Of a stretch of DNA of 64,000 nt, positions 1 to 60,031 are shown piece after piece. Origin of the DNA: an uncultured cyanobacterium (lineage in GTDB: Bacteria; Cyanobacteriota; Cyanobacteriia; Cyanobacteriales; Cyanobacteriaceae); the NCBI GenBank assembly GCA_963749915.1, contig CAVVOP010000005.1, forward strand, positions 1 to 64,000. Direction: 5' to 3'. The position numbers and the translations under genes are program-made. The notes beneath the pieces were generated by a model, which ran no database searches, was not told the origin of the DNA, and worked only from the letters and a program-made list of their open reading frames with translations. Position 1 is the stretch's first letter; each line of letters starts with the position of its first letter.

Positions 1-773
1 GTTCAATTTCTTTCCACCCTTGTTGATGAGCAAATTGAAACAACTGCACCACATCTTGGGTTTTGATTGGGATGATTTCCTTTCAACGCTAAAACATAAT
101 CTCCTTTTTGCTCGATAATAGTTTCGGCAATTTCCTTTTGACATCCCATGGCATCAATACTAACTATACTTCCTTCAATGGTAAGTATTTTTAAGAGTTC
201 GGGAATGGCAGTGATTTCCTTAGATTTAGCATTGACTTTCCTTTGTCCCAAAACTAAGCGATTTTTTGTGGCCCACGCACTTACCATATGTATTGCTCCC
301 CGACTCTCACCTCTTTCTAGGGTACTGCGTAAGCTTTTTCCATCAATGGCAATTACTTGCCCCTTCGTGATCTGAGTCACTGCCTCAATCCAAGACAGAA
401 AACATTGCTGTAATTCGTTTGGTTTTAAACGTGCAAAGAGTCTCATCAATGTATCGTGAGATGGAATTCCATGAGGTAACTCTAAAAATGTTTCTAACCA
501 TTCTTTTTTGCCATGGCCATAATTTTCAATTTCGACCCAGTTATTGGCACCACAAATCATGGCACAAATGGTGATTATTACTATATCAATAAGAAGATGA
601 TCAATACTATGTTCGGCACGAGGATCCGTTAAATTTTCAAAATGTTTTGACAAAGATGCTATTGGTGAGTTACTCATAAATTAGTCAAAATAATTACATT
701 GACTATTTATTTTCTCTCATCAACCAATTTCTTTGTTTTGCTCAATTGTTAAGTTTTGTGTGCGTTTGCCCTG
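1..773 (-). mobile_element. ISAs1-family insertion sequence, 5' part; runs off the window start; transposase frameshifted
   Basis: ORF 3-677 has ISAs1 motifs (DPR, PHGIPSHDT, IAIDGK, H-x-VSAW, IDAMGCQ). Terminal repeat CAGGGCAAACGCACAC at 758-773 (minus). Homologous-looking sequence QDVVQLFQFAHQQGWKEIE continues in another frame near nt 55-70. Confidence 0.85.
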
Positions 774-803
774 GTTCGGTTATCAGGCTTCTAAACCGTA
801 GGG

Positions 804-840
804 GTTTCAATCAATGTTTCCTGAAGGGGTTGATTGAAGG
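804..840 (+). CRISPR. Single 37-nt type V-K-like CRISPR repeat (minimal or degenerate array)
   Basis: GTTTCAATCAATGTTTCCTGAAGGGGTTGATTGAAGG has the GTTTCAA...TTGAA(A/G)G shape and length of cyanobacterial V-K repeats. Its 3' end resembles the partial repeat at 964-978. No second full repeat was seen. Confidence 0.7.
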
Positions 841-951
841 GTGATCTGAGGGGGATTAAGTAGTGCCATAGCAAGTGCGATTACTAAGAATACTAACAGA
901 GGCGATCGCACCTGTTATCTCCATGACAGGATACGAACAAAATAAATAGGC

Positions 952-957
952 TATAAT
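952..957 (+). promoter_or_regulatory. Putative -10 box (TATAAT) for the delocalised homing crRNA
   Basis: Perfect TATAAT about 6-7 nt upstream of the partial repeat AGGATAGATTGAAAG. No clear -35 element. Confidence 0.5.
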
Positions 958-963
958 CAACTT

Positions 964-995
964 AGGATAGATTGAAAGGCGCGCCTGTTTTGGGA
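964..995 (+). CRISPR. Truncated repeat plus 17-nt homing (anchor) spacer targeting tRNA-Pro
   Basis: GATTGAAAG is followed by GCGCGCCTGTTTTGGGA (979-995), 16/17 identical to the tRNA-Pro sequence GCGCGCCTGCTTTGGGA (1189-1173, minus), which is preceded by a GTA PAM. Confidence 0.9.
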
Positions 996-1017
996 TAAAA
1001 AATATTTCTCCTAGAAA

Positions 1018-1129
1018 ACGACATTAATTTGTCACTGCCATTTCAACGACAAGAATTTGTCATCACGACACTTAATTTGGCACAACGACAGGAATTTGTC
1101 ACCGATGACAATTAATTTGGCACTGTACA
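1018..1129 (-). mobile_element. Tn7-like (CAST V-K) transposon end, tRNA-proximal (conventionally left) end
   Basis: Terminal TGTACA at 1124-1129 plus five 18-19 bp repeats A(C/T)GACA-n2-3-AATTTG(T/G)CA(C/T) starting at 1018, 1046, 1065, 1085 and 1105. The minus strand reads TGTACAGTGCCAAATTAATTGTCATCGGTGACAAATT. Confidence 0.9.
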
Positions 1130-1137
1130 AGGAGCGA

Positions 1138-1211
1138 TCGGGATGACAGGATTTGAACCTGCGACATCCTGCTCCCAAAGCAGGCGCGCTACCAAGCTGC
1201 GCTACATCCCG
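1138..1211 (-). tRNA. trnP: tRNA-Pro(UGG)
   Basis: CGGGATGTAGCGCAGCTTGGTAGCGCGCCTGCTTTGGGAGCAGGATGTCGCAGGTTCAAATCCTGTCATCCCGA forms a cloverleaf with anticodon TGG. Confidence 0.97.
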
Positions 1212-17554: not shown

Positions 17555-17944
17555 TTAGAGGTTAGAATTTAAGGGATGTTGATGAAACATATATTCTTGA
17601 ACTATTTGATTGTTGATCAGGTGTTGCTGAATAATTTTTTCGATCACTTCAGGGGTGGCATGACGATACCAAGTACCATCGGGATATACCAACAAAATTG
17701 GTCCCTCAACACAAACTCTTAAACAATTGGCCTTAGTGCGAAAAACACAATGAGGATTGTCTGAGGTAGGACAATCGAGGTTTAATTCTTTTAATCTAGT
17801 TTTGAGATATTGCCATGACTCTAAACTATCTTCTTTTGAACAGCATTTGGGTTTAGCTTGATCGCAACATAAAAATACGTGGCGTTGTATAGTTGACAAT
17901 CCTAGTTGTTTGACTGATTCAGCTAAGGGGTTTTTATTGCTCAT
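17555..17944 (-). CDS. Thioredoxin-like (2Fe-2S) ferredoxin
   Basis: RHVFLCC...CC...RTKANCLRVC.EGPILLVYPDGTWY. Confidence 0.85.
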   Translation of the reverse strand: MSNKNPLAESVKQLGLSTIQRHVFLCCDQAKPKCCSKEDSLESWQYLKTRLKELNLDCPTSDNPHCVFRTKANCLRVCVEGPILLVYPDGTWYRHATPEVIEKIIQQHLINNQIVQEYMFHQHPLNSNL

Positions 17945-18204
17945 ACAAAGATAATATAGTGGGTTGTGAGTTTTGTAGAAGTTAATGACATTAGGCCTCT
18001 TTCTGAGTCAGGAAACCATCAAATCTTCTCTTTATCATTGTCGGTAGTTAACTTTCACATGTCAACTATTCATTATCGTGTTAAGATATGCTCAGTAAAA
18101 TTCCATCCGTCTTTTCCTATACTTTTTCTTATTTTCTTTAAATTTTTTATCTCACCAAATTATATTTATTCTTCGAAGCCAATTTTAAATTAATCATTTA
18201 ACCT

Positions 18205-20052
18205 ATGACTACAAAAACTGAAAGTAATAATTGGAAAATTTCATGGCAGTTATTAAGTGTTATTTTAGCCCTTTCTTTTGGTGGTGTGGGATTTCTTGCC
18301 ACCACTGCTTTATTGCGTTTACCAAGTAATCCTAGTTGTAATCGTTTCTCTTTGTTTTTCAGTTCGGCTACCAATCGTATCTACTGCGCTCAATTACAAG
18401 CAGATAAAAATACCGTAGATTCTTTATTAGAAGCCATTGCTTTGTTAGAAGCCTTATCTGCTAATCATCCTCTTCGTAATGAAATTAATCGTTATGTGAC
18501 ACAATGGTCTAATGATATTTTATTGTTGGCGGAAAAAGAATTAAATCAAGGGAATTTGGAGGAAGCCATCGCCATTGCTCGTAAAATACCTCCACAGGTG
18601 GAAAATTACCACTCCATCGAAGAAAAAATCGCCCAATGGACAGAAATTTGGGATAAAGCTGAAGCAATTCAAGAAGAAGTAGAAGAGGAGTTACGAAATT
18701 CTCAATGGAATAAGGCTTTTTTAGTTGCGGTTAAATTGTTGAATATTGATAATGATTATTGGCAAAATACTAAATATCAAGAAACCGTTAAAACCATTAA
18801 TTTAGCTAGGGAAGAAAGCAAACAACTTGATGGAGCTTATGTTACTTTAAAAGCTGGTGGTGTGGATGATTTATTGAAAACCCTAGAAACTGCTTCACTG
18901 ATTGCCCCCTCTAGTTATTCTTACAATGAGGCAATTAAGTTAATTAAAGATGCGGAAGACAAAATTACCGCCATTGTTGAAAAATTTGTCGATGCTCAAA
19001 ATTGGGATAATTTAGCGGAATTAGCTGCGAAAATTCCTGACAATAGCAGTCTCATAAATCAAGTTAGAGATTGGACAACTATGGCTAGTGCTGGTAAAAA
19101 TTCTAATTTGGGTACGGTGTCTGGTATGGAATTAGCCATTGCTGAGGCAGAACAGATTCCCAGTGATAGTGAATTTTATAATAAAAGCAGAGAGTTAGCT
19201 TCTCGATGGATTGCTCAAAAAGAAGACTTGACCTATTTAGCCAATGCGAGAGATTTAGCCAGATCCGGTCAAGTGGTGGATTTAAATGCTGCCATCGCCA
19301 AGGCTGAATTAGTTAGTAACGGAAATCCCCTTTATCCGGAAGCACGGCAAGAAATACGACAGTGGCGAAGAGATATCCAAATCCAAGAAGATAAACCATT
19401 ATTAACCAAAGCCCAGGAATTGGCACGGGGGGGTAACATTCGAGCATGGCAAAATGCCATTAATCAAGCCAGTCAAATTAAGTCAGATCGAGCATTATAT
19501 ACTGAAGCCAGTAATTTAATGCGGGAATGGAGATATAACATTGAAAGGGTCGAGGATCAACCCGTTTTAGATCAAGCGATCGCCCTAGGTGACAATAAGA
19601 ACTACCAAGAAGCTGTTAATACTGCCAGTCGTATTGGCAGAGGAAGGGCATTATATTCGGATGCTCAAAACCAAATACGTCGATGGCGCAGAGAGATTAA
19701 CGCCCAACAAGATTTACAGAGAGCATATCAAATAGCACAAAATGGCGATCCCCAATCTTTATCTAGTGCTATTAGTATAGCCCGCAGAATACCATCATCT
19801 TCCACTGTAGAATCTCAAAGTCGTCAAGCAGTGAATCGTTGGTCAGAACAATTGTTAATTATGGCAAAAAGAGTCGCTGCAGATTATACAACACTCTCAT
19901 CCATTGAACAAGCCATTAGTATCGCCGAAATGATCCCCTCTGGTAGTTCAGCCTATAATCAAGCTGAACAGGAAATTATTGGTTGGAAAAACGTGCTAAA
20001 TCCGTATCCAAATCCAACTATTCCCGTTCAAGAAACTAATTTTGACAATTAA
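18205..20052 (+). CDS. Membrane-anchored helical-repeat protein (family often labelled chromosome segregation ATPase)
   Basis: N-terminal transmembrane segment, then repeated AIAxAxxIP...Y..AQ..I..W units. No ATPase motif seen. Confidence 0.7.
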   Translation: MTTKTESNNWKISWQLLSVILALSFGGVGFLATTALLRLPSNPSCNRFSLFFSSATNRIYCAQLQADKNTVDSLLEAIALLEALSANHPLRNEINRYVTQWSNDILLLAEKELNQGNLEEAIAIARKIPPQVENYHSIEEKIAQWTEIWDKAEAIQEEVEEELRNSQWNKAFLVAVKLLNIDNDYWQNTKYQETVKTINLAREESKQLDGAYVTLKAGGVDDLLKTLETASLIAPSSYSYNEAIKLIKDAEDKITAIVEKFVDAQNWDNLAELAAKIPDNSSLINQVRDWTTMASAGKNSNLGTVSGMELAIAEAEQIPSDSEFYNKSRELASRWIAQKEDLTYLANARDLARSGQVVDLNAAIAKAELVSNGNPLYPEARQEIRQWRRDIQIQEDKPLLTKAQELARGGNIRAWQNAINQASQIKSDRALYTEASNLMREWRYNIERVEDQPVLDQAIALGDNKNYQEAVNTASRIGRGRALYSDAQNQIRRWRREINAQQDLQRAYQIAQNGDPQSLSSAISIARRIPSSSTVESQSRQAVNRWSEQLLIMAKRVAADYTTLSSIEQAISIAEMIPSGSSAYNQAEQEIIGWKNVLNPYPNPTIPVQETNFDN

Positions 20053-20156
20053 TAACTGCCGAGGTCATTGAATTTTAGGAAAAAACAATATACCCACCTT
20101 TTTTGGTGACTAAATTACTACAAAAGAATGATCGCCATGGAGAATCATCCTCACCC

Positions 20157-20246
20157 GTAGGTTGGGTAAAAAGAAGTGCAACCCAACATTACCATGAGAG
20201 AACATGATCAGGATGATGTTGTGTTTCCTGCCTCAACTTAACCTAC
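20157..20246. repeat. GTAG-type REP-like inverted pair
   Basis: GTAGGTTGGGT...AACCCAAC followed by GTTGTGTTTC...TCAACTTAACCTAC. Confidence 0.6.
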
Positions 20247-20387
20247 AGACTAAATTTAATTGGCGTTTTTATTAATTTTGAGCATCTTCCTCTTCCTTTT
20301 CCCAAACTTCCCCCTCTTAACCTTCACCATTTTTCTTCCGTCGAACTCAGGTTGATAACCTATTGAGAACATACCCATATTTAATTT

Positions 20388-20428
20388 TTTAATCTAAAAA
20401 TGATCTTCTGATAATCTAAAAATGATCT
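20388..20428 (+). promoter_or_regulatory. Putative Pho box (SphR/PhoB) upstream of alkaline phosphatase
   Basis: Four 8-mers at exact 11-bp period (TTTAATCT, AATGATCT, GATAATCT, AATGATCT), similar to the cyanobacterial PyTTAAPyPy(T/A) repeat. Confidence 0.55.
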
Positions 20429-20505
20429 TTTGATAAAGTTGTCTTAATTTACAGTACTTACAGTTAGATTTTAGAAACGATCTACAACTTTTGAGAACTG
20501 AAAAT

Positions 20506-23500
20506 ATGGCCAATCCCAATCATGTAATTTTTATTCATCCGGATGGCACCAGCCCATCCCACTACGCCTTCGCCCGCTTTGTCGATCATGGTCCCGATGG
20601 ACGCTTGAACTGGGATAAACTAGACCACGCAGGTGTTTACCTCGGACACATGGAAGATCAGTTAGGCGGCACATCCAACGGCGGTGCAGTCACCCATGCT
20701 ACCGGAGCTAAAGTCTATGCCGAATCCTTCGGTTTTGAGGAGGGGAATACCTCCATTACCTCCCTCAATGGCACCAATGAAACGATCGTTGAATCCGCGA
20801 TCGCCGCTAACAAAGTCACTGCCCTCCTTCAATCCGGTGCTATTTTTGAACCCGGTACAGCAGCCTTTGTGGCGAAAACTGAAGAGATCGACAATGGTGA
20901 TGGTACTAAAACTGTACCCAGAGCCCAACAAGCAGAAATTGCTAAACAGGTTATTGAATCTGGAGTTGACTTCATCATGGGCGGTGGGGAACTGACCCTG
21001 CTTCCAATGGGTACAGATGGCTTCCACGGCACCGCAGCTCAACTAGATGCCCTCAGCACCAATCCTCTCGTGCGCCCTACCATTAATCTGATCGATCTGG
21101 CAGTGTCCTTGGGCTACACCGTAGTTTACACCGAGCAGCAACTGCGAGACCTGCTTGACCCCACTATAACCCCAGTTACCCCCACCAAAGTTCTGGGCGT
21201 ATTCGCTCCCATCCACACCTTCAACGATAAACCTGAAGAAGTCTTGGCAGCCGGTGGCTTGCCACTCTATTTAGAAACCGCGCCCACCATCGCTGAGATG
21301 TTGGAAGTGACCCAACAGTTAATGGAGAAACACCCTAACTTTAACAACGGTTCCATCGCCATTGTCGAAGAAGAGGGAACGGATAACTTCGGCAACAATA
21401 ACAACGCTGCTGGCACCCTAGAGGCCATGCGCCGAGGTGATGCCGCCATTGGGGTAGCCATGGACTTTGTTGAGAAGTATTCCAATACCCTAATTCTGAC
21501 CGCGGCGGATAGTGATGCGGGGGGCTTGCAGGTACAAGACCCTCGCACGGCCGGGCAAAACGTTGGCACCATTAACAATAACCCCATTGATTCTACCTCG
21601 GGACGGAATGTCCCCTTAGATGGACAGACGGGAGCAAATACTTTGCCCTTTGTCGCCGCCCCTGATGCCTCTGGCGATAGCTTTAACTTTGGGATTGCTT
21701 GGGCTGGAACTCCTGACTTTAGTGGTTCTATTGTTTCTAAAGCTCACGGGCTAAATTCCGAGAAATTACCCGCAACTCTGGACAATACCAAAATCTACGA
21801 GTTGATGTACGAGACCCTGTTCGACACCGAACTGGAAGCTCGTAACCCCGACCCCACTCCGGCTCCGGCTGCTACTGCTGATACCGGCAATGTGATCTTC
21901 ATTCACCCCGATGGTACCAGCCCTTCCCACTACATGGCCCTTCGCAATATCGACAAAGGACCTGATGGCCGTTTGAATTGGGATATGATGTCCGACGCCG
22001 GGGTCTACTTGGGACACATGGAGAACCAGCTAACCGGAACTTCTAATGCGGGTGCTGTTACCCATGCCAATGGAGTGAAGGTCTTTAATGAATCCTTTGG
22101 ACTTGAGGCAGATAACTCCCCTGTAATCCCAGCCTCGGGCAAAATTGGTAAGACCATCTTAGATGAAGCGATTGAAGCTGGCAAAGCTACTGCCCTGATT
22201 CAATCCGGTCATATCGGTGAACCCGGAACCGCTGCCTTTGCCGCCCAAACTACCAACCGCGATGGTGATGACATCCGGGCACGGGACAAAACGGCTGAGA
22301 TTGCTGAACAAGTCATCCGCTCCGGGACTAATGTCATTATGGCCGGTGGAGAAGTCTATCTCTTGCCCAAAGGAACCACTGGCTTCCATGTAACTGCTGA
22401 AATAGATGCCGCTTTCGACGATCCGGAGGACCGCCCCGAAACTAACCTGATTGATCTGGCCGAGTCTCTTGGCTATACGGTAGTTTACACTGAAGAGCAA
22501 ATGAATGCGGCGATAGCAACTGCCACTGCTTCCACCAAATTACTGGGAGTCTTTGCTGCCAACCACACCTTCGACGATCAGAGGGAAGAATCCTTGGGGT
22601 TAAACACTGACAACCCTCTACCCCTCTATGTAGAAACTGCTCCCACCGTAGCCGAGATGTTAGACGCATCTCTGAAGATCCTCAGCCAAGATCCCGATGG
22701 GTTCTTCGTGGTGGTCGAAGAAGAAGGTACGGATAACTTTGCCAACAACAACAACGCTGTTGGGACGATCGAAGCTATGCGGCGAGCCGATGCGGCGATC
22801 GGGGTAGCGATGGATTATGTCAACACCCAAGATCCTAATACCTTGGTACTAACAGCAGCAGATAGTGATGCGGGGGGCATGCAAGTGTTCCAGTTTGCCC
22901 CTATACCCGTCCCAGTGGTAATTTCGACGAAAAAAACCCTAACTTAGCTGATAGTCAACCTGAAGTTCCCTTCATTAACGTCAATCCCACCACTGTTAAT
23001 CAATCTCGGGTTTATCTTGACGGTGTTAATGGTAGCACCGCCAGCGCTGAACAACCTTGGATTCCTTTTGCTGCCGAAGGTAGCATTGATGGGCCAATGG
23101 GTAATTTTGGCGTGGGTTGGACCGGCACCCCTGACGTACCCGGCAGCATTGTCTCCAAAGCTTACGGAATGAATGCTGACCTACTGCCTTCTACCTTAGA
23201 TAATACTCAAATTTACGATTTGATGTATGAAACCTTATTCGGTGTAACTCCTGAAGAAGTCCAAATTCCTAAAGTAGTTAATGGTACTTCTGGCGATGAC
23301 TACTTTGACAGTGCTTTCCCCGATGAAAAAATGTTCAAAGGTGCAGAACAAAACTTATTCACTGGTAGCGACGACGATACCGTTGACGTTTCTGTAATGG
23401 GTGAAGGTAATCGCATCGATACTGGTAGCGGAGATGACATCGTGTTTGCAGGTACTAACAACCGCATTATTTTAGGTGCTGGTGATGACATCTTATTCGC

Positions 23501-28874: not shown

Positions 28875-29350
28875 CATATTCCCATCGCCGACAAATGCGT
28901 TATGGCGTGGGCTTCTCAAAGGCAAAAGCCCTTAAGCATTTCATAGTGAGACAATGCCCAACCCCACTTTTTTGATTAATTTTGTACTAGCCTCATCCCT
29001 GTCAATGGAAACTCCGCAATGGGAACAATCATGCCATCTATTCAGAGAGAGTTTTTGGTACTGAGTTTAAACAGTTATAGCAAACTTGGCTAGTTTTTCT
29101 CGGATTGATTTTAACGACTTTATTCCCAAACTTTTTAGCCTGATGCTCTAAAATCTCCAAGAATTGAGCCATGCCACAATCTGAAAAACTCTTGTTTAGC
29201 CCAGATTTTGCACTTTGCCCATTTTGACATTTAAAAGCTAAATATCCACTTATCACGAAGTCCCTCAAGCAAGTTAATGAGTTAGATTTTTATTTTTCAA
29301 ACACCCCCTCCAATCACGACCATTGTACGCACTTTTTACAGAAAGTGGGT
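28871..29350 (-). mobile_element. Degraded IS200/IS605-family (tnpB) element
   Basis: TnpB C-terminal fragment (SGLNKSFSDCGMAQFLEIL...TSQVCYNC). Right-end hairpin ends in TCAC at 28871; possible left-end hairpin near 29330-29347. Confidence 0.7.
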
Positions 29351-59146: not shown

Positions 59147-60031
59147 TCAGCACTTAACTAGATTGACCAAGTTACCTTGCTTAATCCCCGTCAGTACGCC
59201 TTCGTAAGCAATTTCATTCACGGTATGCCCTACCGCTACTAATCCTCTATTTTTAATTACCTTTGCACTTACTACATCTCTTGGTGCAATATAACCACAA
59301 TACTGGCAATTATGTACTCTTTCATTTAACTGTTTTTTGCCTGTATGACTTCCGCAGTTGCTACATTCTTGAGATGTCCCATCTTTGTTGACTTTTCGAT
59401 AAAATTTACTGCGTTTCCAACAAACATAAGGCAATATCTCATTAATAAATTGCCCTATTCCAGAGTCCAAAGATTGCTTTGTGACAATCCCTCGACCCCA
59501 CGAAATAAAGTTTATATCCTCAACAAAAATGTTATCCGTTAAGTCGCAGAGGTAATTTGCTGATTTAAAGTGCCAATTCCTACGGGTATTAGCTACTTTT
59601 TCATGTAATTTAACTATCTTATTTTGAAGTTTTAACCAATTATTTGAGCCTTTGATTTTATGTTTCAAACGTCTTTGTAGCGATTTCAGCTTACTCTGTG
59701 CTTGCAACAAAAATTTTGGGGCTTTGATTAATTCTCCTCTATCGGTAGCTACAAATGATTCTATCCCAGCATCAATACCTAAGCTTAATTTTCCTACTGG
59801 TGCGTCAGGGCAAGATTCTTGAGACTGAAAAGCAATCATCAAATAATAACCCGTTGCCTTTTTTACAATTCGAGCCTGTTTCGGCTCAAAACCCGTAGGA
59901 TAATCTCTTGATTGTTTTATTTTCAACCAACCTAATTGGGGTAACTTTACCTTACCTTGTGCCAAGCAATTTTTCAACATTTGAGGAAAGACAAAACTTT
60001 TCATCTGTTTCTTATAAGTAAGGGTAATCAC
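59147..60031 (-). CDS. tnpB: RNA-guided endonuclease TnpB, shortened (apparent in-frame internal deletion)
   Basis: RuvC I GIDAG, RuvC II VEDI, zinc finger CSNC/CQYC, RuvC III RDVVSA. Only about 294 aa; the start (V)ITLTY is joined directly to KKQMKSF. Confidence 0.8.
   Translation of the reverse strand: MITLTYKKQMKSFVFPQMLKNCLAQGKVKLPQLGWLKIKQSRDYPTGFEPKQARIVKKATGYYLMIAFQSQESCPDAPVGKLSLGIDAGIESFVATDRGELIKAPKFLLQAQSKLKSLQRRLKHKIKGSNNWLKLQNKIVKLHEKVANTRRNWHFKSANYLCDLTDNIFVEDINFISWGRGIVTKQSLDSGIGQFINEILPYVCWKRSKFYRKVNKDGTSQECSNCGSHTGKKQLNERVHNCQYCGYIAPRDVVSAKVIKNRGLVAVGHTVNEIAYEGVLTGIKQGNLVNLVKC

Follow-up and report, generated by a model that had tools for sequence, protein, structure and literature searches.

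The first 64 kb of contig C5 of the cyanobacterial genome G000 very probably carries, at positions 779-1129, the orphaned left end of a type V-K CRISPR-associated transposon (CAST; CRISPR stands for short palindromic repeats that are clustered and regularly interspaced), a Cas12k-guided Tn7-like transposon, next to an intact gene for the transfer RNA (tRNA) tRNA-Pro(TGG). The 64-kb stretch is called the window, and coordinates are window positions unless a contig or locus is named; "left end" means the CRISPR-side, tRNA-proximal end of the element. A match to the NblS equivalog marks the organism as a cyanobacterium, and type V-K CASTs are reportedly confined to cyanobacteria (PMC12416283). 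The G000 assembly consists of 34 contigs (4.69 Mb) and is scored 100% complete; it was compared within a set of 61 related genomes, G000 included in the count. On this reading the remnant preserves a clear natural imprint of RNA-guided homing, with guide, protospacer adjacent motif (PAM), protospacer and insertion point packed into 250 nt, and it would escape annotation that relies on genes or arrays.

Anatomy of the remnant and its tRNA target

The order of parts across 779-1129 is a CRISPR leader remnant, a 37-nt repeat, a truncated repeat (R*) with a 17-nt spacer, five TnsB-site repeats and the terminus TGTACA. An alignment, A1, covers five loci of this left end, four of which (G000, G005, G006 and G003) retain the anchor-guide region. 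The features, with the adjoining insertion sequence (IS) and tRNA gene, are:

1-773, minus strand: partial, decayed IS with an ISAs1/IS4-type DDE transposase, cut by the contig start; its terminal inverted repeat CAGGGCAAACGCACACA ends at 773
774-778, no strand: 5-nt junction GTTCG from the IS end to the leader homology, either an IS target duplication or part of the leader
779-803, plus strand: CRISPR leader remnant; in intact relatives this sequence directly precedes the first repeat
804-840, plus strand: single V-K-type CRISPR repeat of 37 nt, GTTTCAATCAATGTTTCCTGAAGGGGTTGATTGAAGG
952-957, plus strand: TATAAT box, candidate -10 element of the anchor-guide unit, conserved in A1
962-978, plus strand: truncated repeat R*, TTAGGATAGATTGAAAG; TAGGATAGATTGAAAG is identical in G005 and G006
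979-995, plus strand: anchor (delocalized, homing) spacer of 17 nt, GCGCGCCTGTTTTGGGA, matching tRNA-Pro(TGG)
1016-1123, plus strand: five direct repeats resembling TnsB-binding sites, located by motif scan, repeat search and A1
1124-1129, plus strand: TGTACA transposon terminus, invariant in 5/5 loci of A1
1130-1137, no strand: 8-nt junction between element and tRNA gene, AGGAGCGA; its first 5 nt (AGGAG, 1130-1134) are the would-be copy of a target-site duplication
1138-1211, minus strand: intact tRNA-Pro(TGG), the homing target (ARAGORN; Rfam tRNA, 69.5 bits)
1173-1193, minus strand: anchor protospacer (1173-1189) and PAM GGTA (1190-1193) on the tRNA sense strand, placed by the spacer match

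An earlier note on this DNA, made from the letters without database searches, had named the repeat, the truncated repeat with its spacer, the five TnsB-like repeats, TGTACA and tRNA-Pro, and all of them are present where it had put them. The note had taken this layout for the tRNA-proximal end of Cas12k CASTs, which agrees with the description in PMC9938897 and with two complete elements that share the left-end layout, one on contig C22 of G000 and one on contig C1 of G005. Its remark that the segment holds no listed open reading frame (ORF) stands with one amendment: at a cut-off of 40 aa, a 48-aa minus-strand ORF appears at 1032-1178; it overlaps the tRNA and the repeats and is treated as spurious.

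The anchor spacer matches tRNA sense nucleotides 23-39, and is thus complementary to plus-strand positions 1173-1189, at 16 of 17 positions (94%), with the mismatch at position 10. The PAM is of the GTN type (GTA), and TGTACA begins at the 61st nucleotide past it; the 60 bp between them fall within the published range of 46-82 nt. The 3' end of tRNA-Pro(TGG) faces the element at a distance of 8 nt from TGTACA, and the tRNA is thus directed at the end. The TATAAT box lies 4-5 nt upstream of R* and is kept in all four loci that retain this region. In RNA duplex predictions, the repeat part of the orphan guide pairs with the canonical anti-repeat of the trans-activating CRISPR RNA (tracrRNA) of the G005 element (free energy -14.2 kcal/mol, positions 335-350), at the same site as G005's own guide (-12.8).

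The five repeats at 1016-1123 share the form (A/G)(C/T)GACA-N2-3-AATTTG(G/T)CA. The core motif GACA-N2-3-AATTTGKCA has five matches in the window, all within 1020-1122, where 0.01 are expected by chance, and none of 100 shuffles reached five. These are also the sole exact matches across the assembly. In A1 the five sites and TGTACA are nearly invariant over the five loci, and the spacer varies with the target. TGTACA is also the terminus of ShCAST, the prototype CAST, from Scytonema hofmannii. The 1016-1123 stretch is 96% identical to a scar in G004 and 94% identical to a complete element in G005.

The latter element, on contig C1 of G005 (~40.6-61.7 kb; L040, L041; same genus), is an apparently complete V-K CAST. 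It starts beside tRNA-Met(CAT) with a left end 94% identical to that of the window, then has R* (TAGGATAGATTGAAAG) after a TATAAT box, and an anchor spacer that matches tRNA-Met(CAT) at 16/17 positions. Eight repeats, a tracrRNA region, a 636-aa Cas12k, cargo, TniQ, TnsC and TnsB follow, and an inverted end (…TTTGGCACTGTACA) lies ~21 kb away; the proteins were identified by their 45-51% identity to those of the C22 element. The window end therefore has its homologue in an element with genes for Cas12k, TnsB, TnsC and TniQ. The two agree in repeat family, R*, TATAAT box and five-site architecture; the G005 element differs in its tRNA-Met(CAT) target and in having eight repeats, tracrRNA, cas12k, tniQ, tnsC, tnsB and the far end. 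From tnsB to the end on that side, the G005 element has three ORFs of 774, 279 and 799 aa (L040/L041, element coordinates 17854-23413), and the 5 nt flanking its two ends (ATTGT and CAAGT) form no target-site duplication.

The array side of the remnant was aligned with the same lineage. Window positions 780-838 align with G006 C1:28311-28369 at 88%, and 782-842 with G005 C1:41419-41479 at 87%, in both cases over leader and first repeat. Since the alignment takes in 25 nt of leader from G005 and G006 as well as the window repeat, this repeat corresponds to the array's first one. Its identity to the eight repeats of the G005 array is 87-90% in every case; by reading, 32 of 37 positions agree with the G005 repeat, and the 3' GAAAG has become GAAGG. 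What the remnant retains of the array side is thus one V-K-type repeat and 25 nt of leader, which the arrays of G005 and G006 match at 87-90%.

Two other stretches between the array and the terminus were looked at. Positions 862-877 might be taken for an end in inverted orientation, with 75% complementarity to 1109-1124 and ~60% similarity to an end in a hand alignment, but this was judged to be chance. Positions 923-938 (ATGACAGGATACGAAC) match the 3' part of the tRNA-Pro gene (1143-1158) at 14 of 16 positions; GCGATCG precedes this stretch, as it does at the junction. About 0.05 matches of this type are expected by chance in those 600 nt, and the stretch is not present at the equivalent place in G003.

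By the published V-K mechanism and the complete relatives, the element would have homed to tRNA-Pro(TGG) by its own anchor guide. Cas12k, tracrRNA and the transcript of R* and the 17-nt spacer would have recognized the anticodon-arm sequence of the tRNA gene beside the GTA PAM. TniQ and TnsC would have set the distance, and TnsB would have attached the left end at a point 60 bp downstream of the PAM and shortly beyond the tRNA. Today the CRISPR leader is abutted by the IS at 773.

The missing part of the element

On the side away from the tRNA the remnant stops at the IS, which ends 31 nt before the repeat. Its minus-strand ORF (3-677) matches Pfam DDE_Tnp_1_assoc (7e-34) and DDE_Tnp_1 (1e-11). 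Over 773 nt the window copy shares 91% identity with a full copy on contig C21, which is 1467 bp long and has a 380-aa frame; its own transposase frame shifts near window positions 66-70, unlike the frame on C21. A 233-nt contig from the public run X3, which may be related to the source sample, spans 736-968 with one difference; because it bridges the junction of IS and leader, this junction is not an assembly chimera. The closest public holders of the stretch are three low-depth (2-5) sediment metagenomes of one study, in which it is found as contigs; these do not extend across the IS, and runs X4-X20, with small shares, were left aside. Synteny gave no clue to the original neighbour, since the genes flanking tRNA-Pro(TGG) in six relatives map to many different G000 contigs.

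The whole assembly was searched with exact and loose motif scans, blastn, tblastn, Pfam-based scans and a tracrRNA blastn. No cas12k lies beside the remnant, where the contig ends in the IS; the genome-wide search gave a single match in the assembly, the gene of another element on C22, which is 45-46% identical to the cognate lineage. No second V-K-type copy was found by tblastn with the four CAST proteins of C22: apart from the C22 genes, the matches were to a Tn7-like TnsB on C15 (28%), to a fragment of 24 aa on C8 and, at borderline strength, to a TnsC-like stretch on C28. When 14 ORFs of the G005 element were used instead, the four core CAST proteins matched only the C22 genes (45-51%) and, for TnsB, the C15 gene (28%). 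The only tracrRNA matched by the G005 tracrRNA region was that of C22 (71% over 117 nt), and no match fell close to the window; the remaining matches in the G005 protein and tracrRNA searches came from G005 cargo ORFs and a small repeat. Blastn of 780-1140 returned only the query itself.

No partner end was found in the assembly by exact or loose motif scans, and a pair of inverted ends is thus not seen. The assembly holds no cognate tnsB-tnsC-tniQ operon without tnsA, the sole V-K-type set being that on C22, and at the remnant there is no tracrRNA between a cas12k and the array. These results favour a remnant that has lost everything beyond the IS, namely tracrRNA, cas12k, cargo, tniQ, tnsC, tnsB and the right end, all of which are missing from the assembly. 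The earlier note had supposed that the rest of the element lies upstream or has been lost. Loss is favoured over an upstream location, as the contig starts in the IS and no cognate genes, tracrRNA or second end were recovered from the assembly. The note had also said that, if cas12k, the tns genes and a matching second end were absent, the locus would be reduced to an orphan relic, and with nothing cognate in the assembly it is one by that measure.

Three weaker matches deserve a description. An intergenic stretch of 21-24 aa at C8:335040-335111 is 81% identical to residues 213-233 of the G005-lineage TnsB and 71% to TnsB of C22; a lost tnsB may have left it behind, and there are no end-like repeats nearby. 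At the end of contig C15 (C15:24229-27084; L011:17030-19885), a TnsA-sized ORF (212 aa) is followed by a 713-aa TnsB-like gene with a Mu-transpos_C domain, 28% identical to V-K TnsB. The borderline TnsC-like match (E 0.001) lies near the end of C28. The TnsA-like/TnsB-like pair on C15, together with the C28 match, probably belongs to a separate Tn7-like element.

The resident element at C22:163080-178137 (loci L050, L012 and L014) is a complete V-K CAST at tRNA-Pro(GGG). Its 635-aa protein matches ShCas12k over the full length (E 1.6e-189), TnsB was recognized by Mu-transpos_C and TnsC by TniB, and the TniQ match is weak (21.2 bits against a cut-off of 27 bits). Its anchor spacer matches its tRNA at 16/17, and PAM and end are 61 bp apart; the element further has an array of four repeats, a tracrRNA region and two ends that match each other. 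The cargo comprises a type I restriction-modification system (hsdM, hsdS, hsdR), a 647-aa SLFN_AlbA_2/HATPase_c_4/Fic-like_C protein and a YgjP-like peptidase. At the end on the tnsB side, TATACA stands in place of TGTACA, and a second short repeat-like piece (GTATTGAAAG with a spacer that has no assigned target) lies at ~L014:17390-17378.

The C22 element and the remnant belong to the same class and have the same layout but come from different lineages. The C22 proteins are only 45-51% identical to those of the G005 lineage, and the repeat, the end sequence (ATTGAATGTACA) and the tracrRNA anti-repeat all differ from those of the remnant lineage. Because the C22 element has such divergent proteins, its own ends and a different repeat, the window end is not its missing part. 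In duplex predictions, the best pairing of the orphan guide with the C22 tracrRNA falls off the anti-repeat (-11.2 kcal/mol, positions 478-496), whereas C22's own guide pairs with the anti-repeat (-18.6, positions 358-375). Since the predicted duplex misses the anti-repeat, use of the orphan guide by the C22 system appears unlikely.

The remnant would thus be non-autonomous and is most likely inert. Its sole full repeat is mutated at the 3' GAAAG, and for its anchor-guide unit, intact as it looks, the assembly holds no cognate tracrRNA or Cas12k.

Scars in relatives and competing explanations

Matches to 780-1137 occur in 29 of the 61 genomes, G000 included. The same end is combined with different anchor spacers, directed to tRNA-Ala(CGC) in G003 and G006 and to tRNA-Thr in G017. 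A rule that anchor spacers always bear exactly one mismatch was considered and rejected; it is true of four of the five distinct well-matched guides, and the tRNA-Thr guide of G017 matches at 17/17. The single internal mismatches in those four are at positions 10, 7, 14 and 10, and two of the four come from apparently complete elements. A sixth guide, in G001 (tRNA-Val, 15/17, PAM CGTT, 48 nt), was set aside as doubtful.

The decay seen in G000 is common among the relatives. Matches to cas12k occur in 25 of the 61 genomes; of the 54 listed, 36 are pieces and 18 come close to full length, 8 of these 18 with one or two internal stops. A cas12k match is lacking altogether in eight of the 28 relatives that have an end-like match; one of the eight, G012, is only 67% complete. 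A same-lineage element in G006 (L045, which is G006:C1:22000-41999; positions 4081-6660 of L045) has a cas12k match that contains an internal TGA and is broken up into two ORFs, 164 and 407 aa long. The array of this element holds a single full repeat, and only a 3' fragment of 21 nt is left of the adjacent tRNA-Ala. The broken cas12k and the tRNA-Ala fragment indicate that this copy is both decaying and rearranged.

At tRNA-Pro(TGG) itself, 420 nt 3' of the gene were surveyed in six relatives, a comparison the earlier note had called for. Two of the six, G002 and G003, have no scar in these 420 nt, and the other four carry scars of the same end that are shorter than that of G000. The G004 scar consists of five sites and nothing more, with a SpoU methylase gene within ~25 nt; two sites remain in G017, about one in G006 and, by reading, a decayed terminal site in G001. 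The junctions to the tRNA are 8 nt in G000, 13 nt in G004 and 9 nt in G017 and are unrelated in sequence. Identity of the end to the copies in G005 and G004 is 94-96%, as against only 80-85% between a nearby host gene and its same-genus orthologues. Because the end is more alike than the host gene and the junctions differ, the scars point to recent independent acquisitions followed by deletions that spared the tRNA-adjacent part. From these sequence comparisons, the G000 scar would be younger than the species splits of the genus and independent of the similar scars in the relatives.

Taken with the relatives, the remnant illustrates how V-K CASTs die: one lineage of ends has swapped anchor spacers for at least four tRNAs, and scars of 5, 5, 2 and about 1 TnsB sites are left at one tRNA. 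This is of use to those who mine genomes for CASTs and for the dating of CAST turnover.

The alternative that survives best is a complete but interrupted element, in which the IS sits between tracrRNA and array and the rest is on unassembled or unbinned DNA; it is judged rather unlikely. A number of observations do weigh against an orphaned, inert end. Contig C5 starts inside the IS, at base 1, with the remainder of the IS and the following DNA outside the assembly, and no other contig end of the G000 assembly carries the other IS half; the remainder of the element could therefore be present in the cell. G000 may be a binned genome that lost mobile contigs, and a binned assembly is plausible given that the best public holders of the stretch are metagenomes at a depth of 2-5. 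The anchor-guide unit is seemingly undamaged, with the TATAAT box, R* and the 16/17 spacer in place, all five TnsB sites are intact, and inertness is deduced rather than observed. A scan for consensus sigma-70-type promoters called none at the TATAAT box.

Set against an interrupted element are the completeness score of the assembly and its small number of contigs, in which no second cas12k, tnsB, tnsC, tniQ or tracrRNA is found, even as fragments at contig ends. The sole repeat is degenerate and the IS copy decayed, as expected of an old lesion. Furthermore, gene-less scars of the same end occur in relatives whose genomes are closed or nearly so, for example G006 with 1 contig and G001 with 6. 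An orphaned left end thus remains the preferred reading.

It is very improbable that the scar is kept for a function, either as TnsB sites that give target immunity or as a guide used in trans by the C22 element or an incoming CAST. Target immunity through TnsB and TnsC is a stated property of such systems (PMC9798831). Scars recur in four of six relatives at this tRNA, the end is better conserved than host genes, the TATAAT box and R* are conserved, and the terminal sites of the C22 end and the window end have a common core, GACAATTAATT. However, the nested truncations always retain the tRNA-proximal part, and deletions bound only to spare the tRNA suffice to produce them without selection; recent horizontal arrival explains the high identity equally well. 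The predicted pairing of the orphan guide off the C22 anti-repeat also argues against its use in trans by that element. There is a slim chance that the scars act as lasting target-immunity marks, which would keep related CASTs from invading the tRNA site again, and that the G000 guide with its putative promoter could also steer an incoming CAST of the same lineage, even one with an anchor for a different tRNA, to tRNA-Pro(TGG). If true, guide and immunity mark would be opposed at one locus.

Chance resemblance, or an unrelated repeat cluster next to the tRNA, has practically no probability left and is refuted by the motif shuffles, the 16/17 spacer and the 94-96% identity of the end to those of elements that carry cas12k and tns genes.

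Elsewhere in the window, a short dispersed repeat lies at ~1680-2130. Copies of ~230-290 nt and 98-99% identity are found on C19, C8 and C31 and at C5:209684-209915, and the repeat looks like a miniature inverted-repeat transposable element. Matches to the Cas12f1-like_TNB zinc ribbon, typical of TnpB/IS200-IS605 elements, lie at 29062-29166 and 59255-59440 (minus strand); there are 13 genome-wide.

Relation to known systems

The V-K left end has been described by Ziemann et al. 2023 (PMC9938897), who cover AnCAST of Anabaena sp. PCC 7120 and 118 systems. As given there, the tRNA is directed to the left end with the array close by, and R* is followed by an anchor spacer of ~17 nt that matches the tRNA; the PAM is GTN, and the end lies 46-82 nt from it. 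Homing by a delocalized crRNA (CRISPR RNA) is summarized in PMC11656645. No paper devoted to V-K scars was found by title or abstract in the literature on Cas12k CAST remnants, and the supplementary lists of PMC9938897 may hold degenerate systems.

The remnant resembles the CASTs of PMC9938897 in the direction of the tRNA, the nearness of the array to the end, R*, the 17-nt anchor spacer, the GTN PAM and a distance of 60 nt that lies in their range. It differs from them in that cas12k, tracrRNA, a regulator gene, the tns genes and the right end are all absent, in the single degenerate repeat of its array and in its truncation by an IS in the leader.

The insertion mechanism proposed for the remnant would be like that of ShCAST (Cas12k structures 7n3o, 7pla and 8axa), which works through a complex of Cas12k, tracrRNA and crRNA and inserts 60-66 bp downstream of the PAM (PMC9798831). 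ShCas12k resembles the resident Cas12k of C22; the remnant encodes no protein to compare. Knowledge of the mechanism is unchanged by this locus, and the remnant is a decayed instance of a well-described system, not a new kind.

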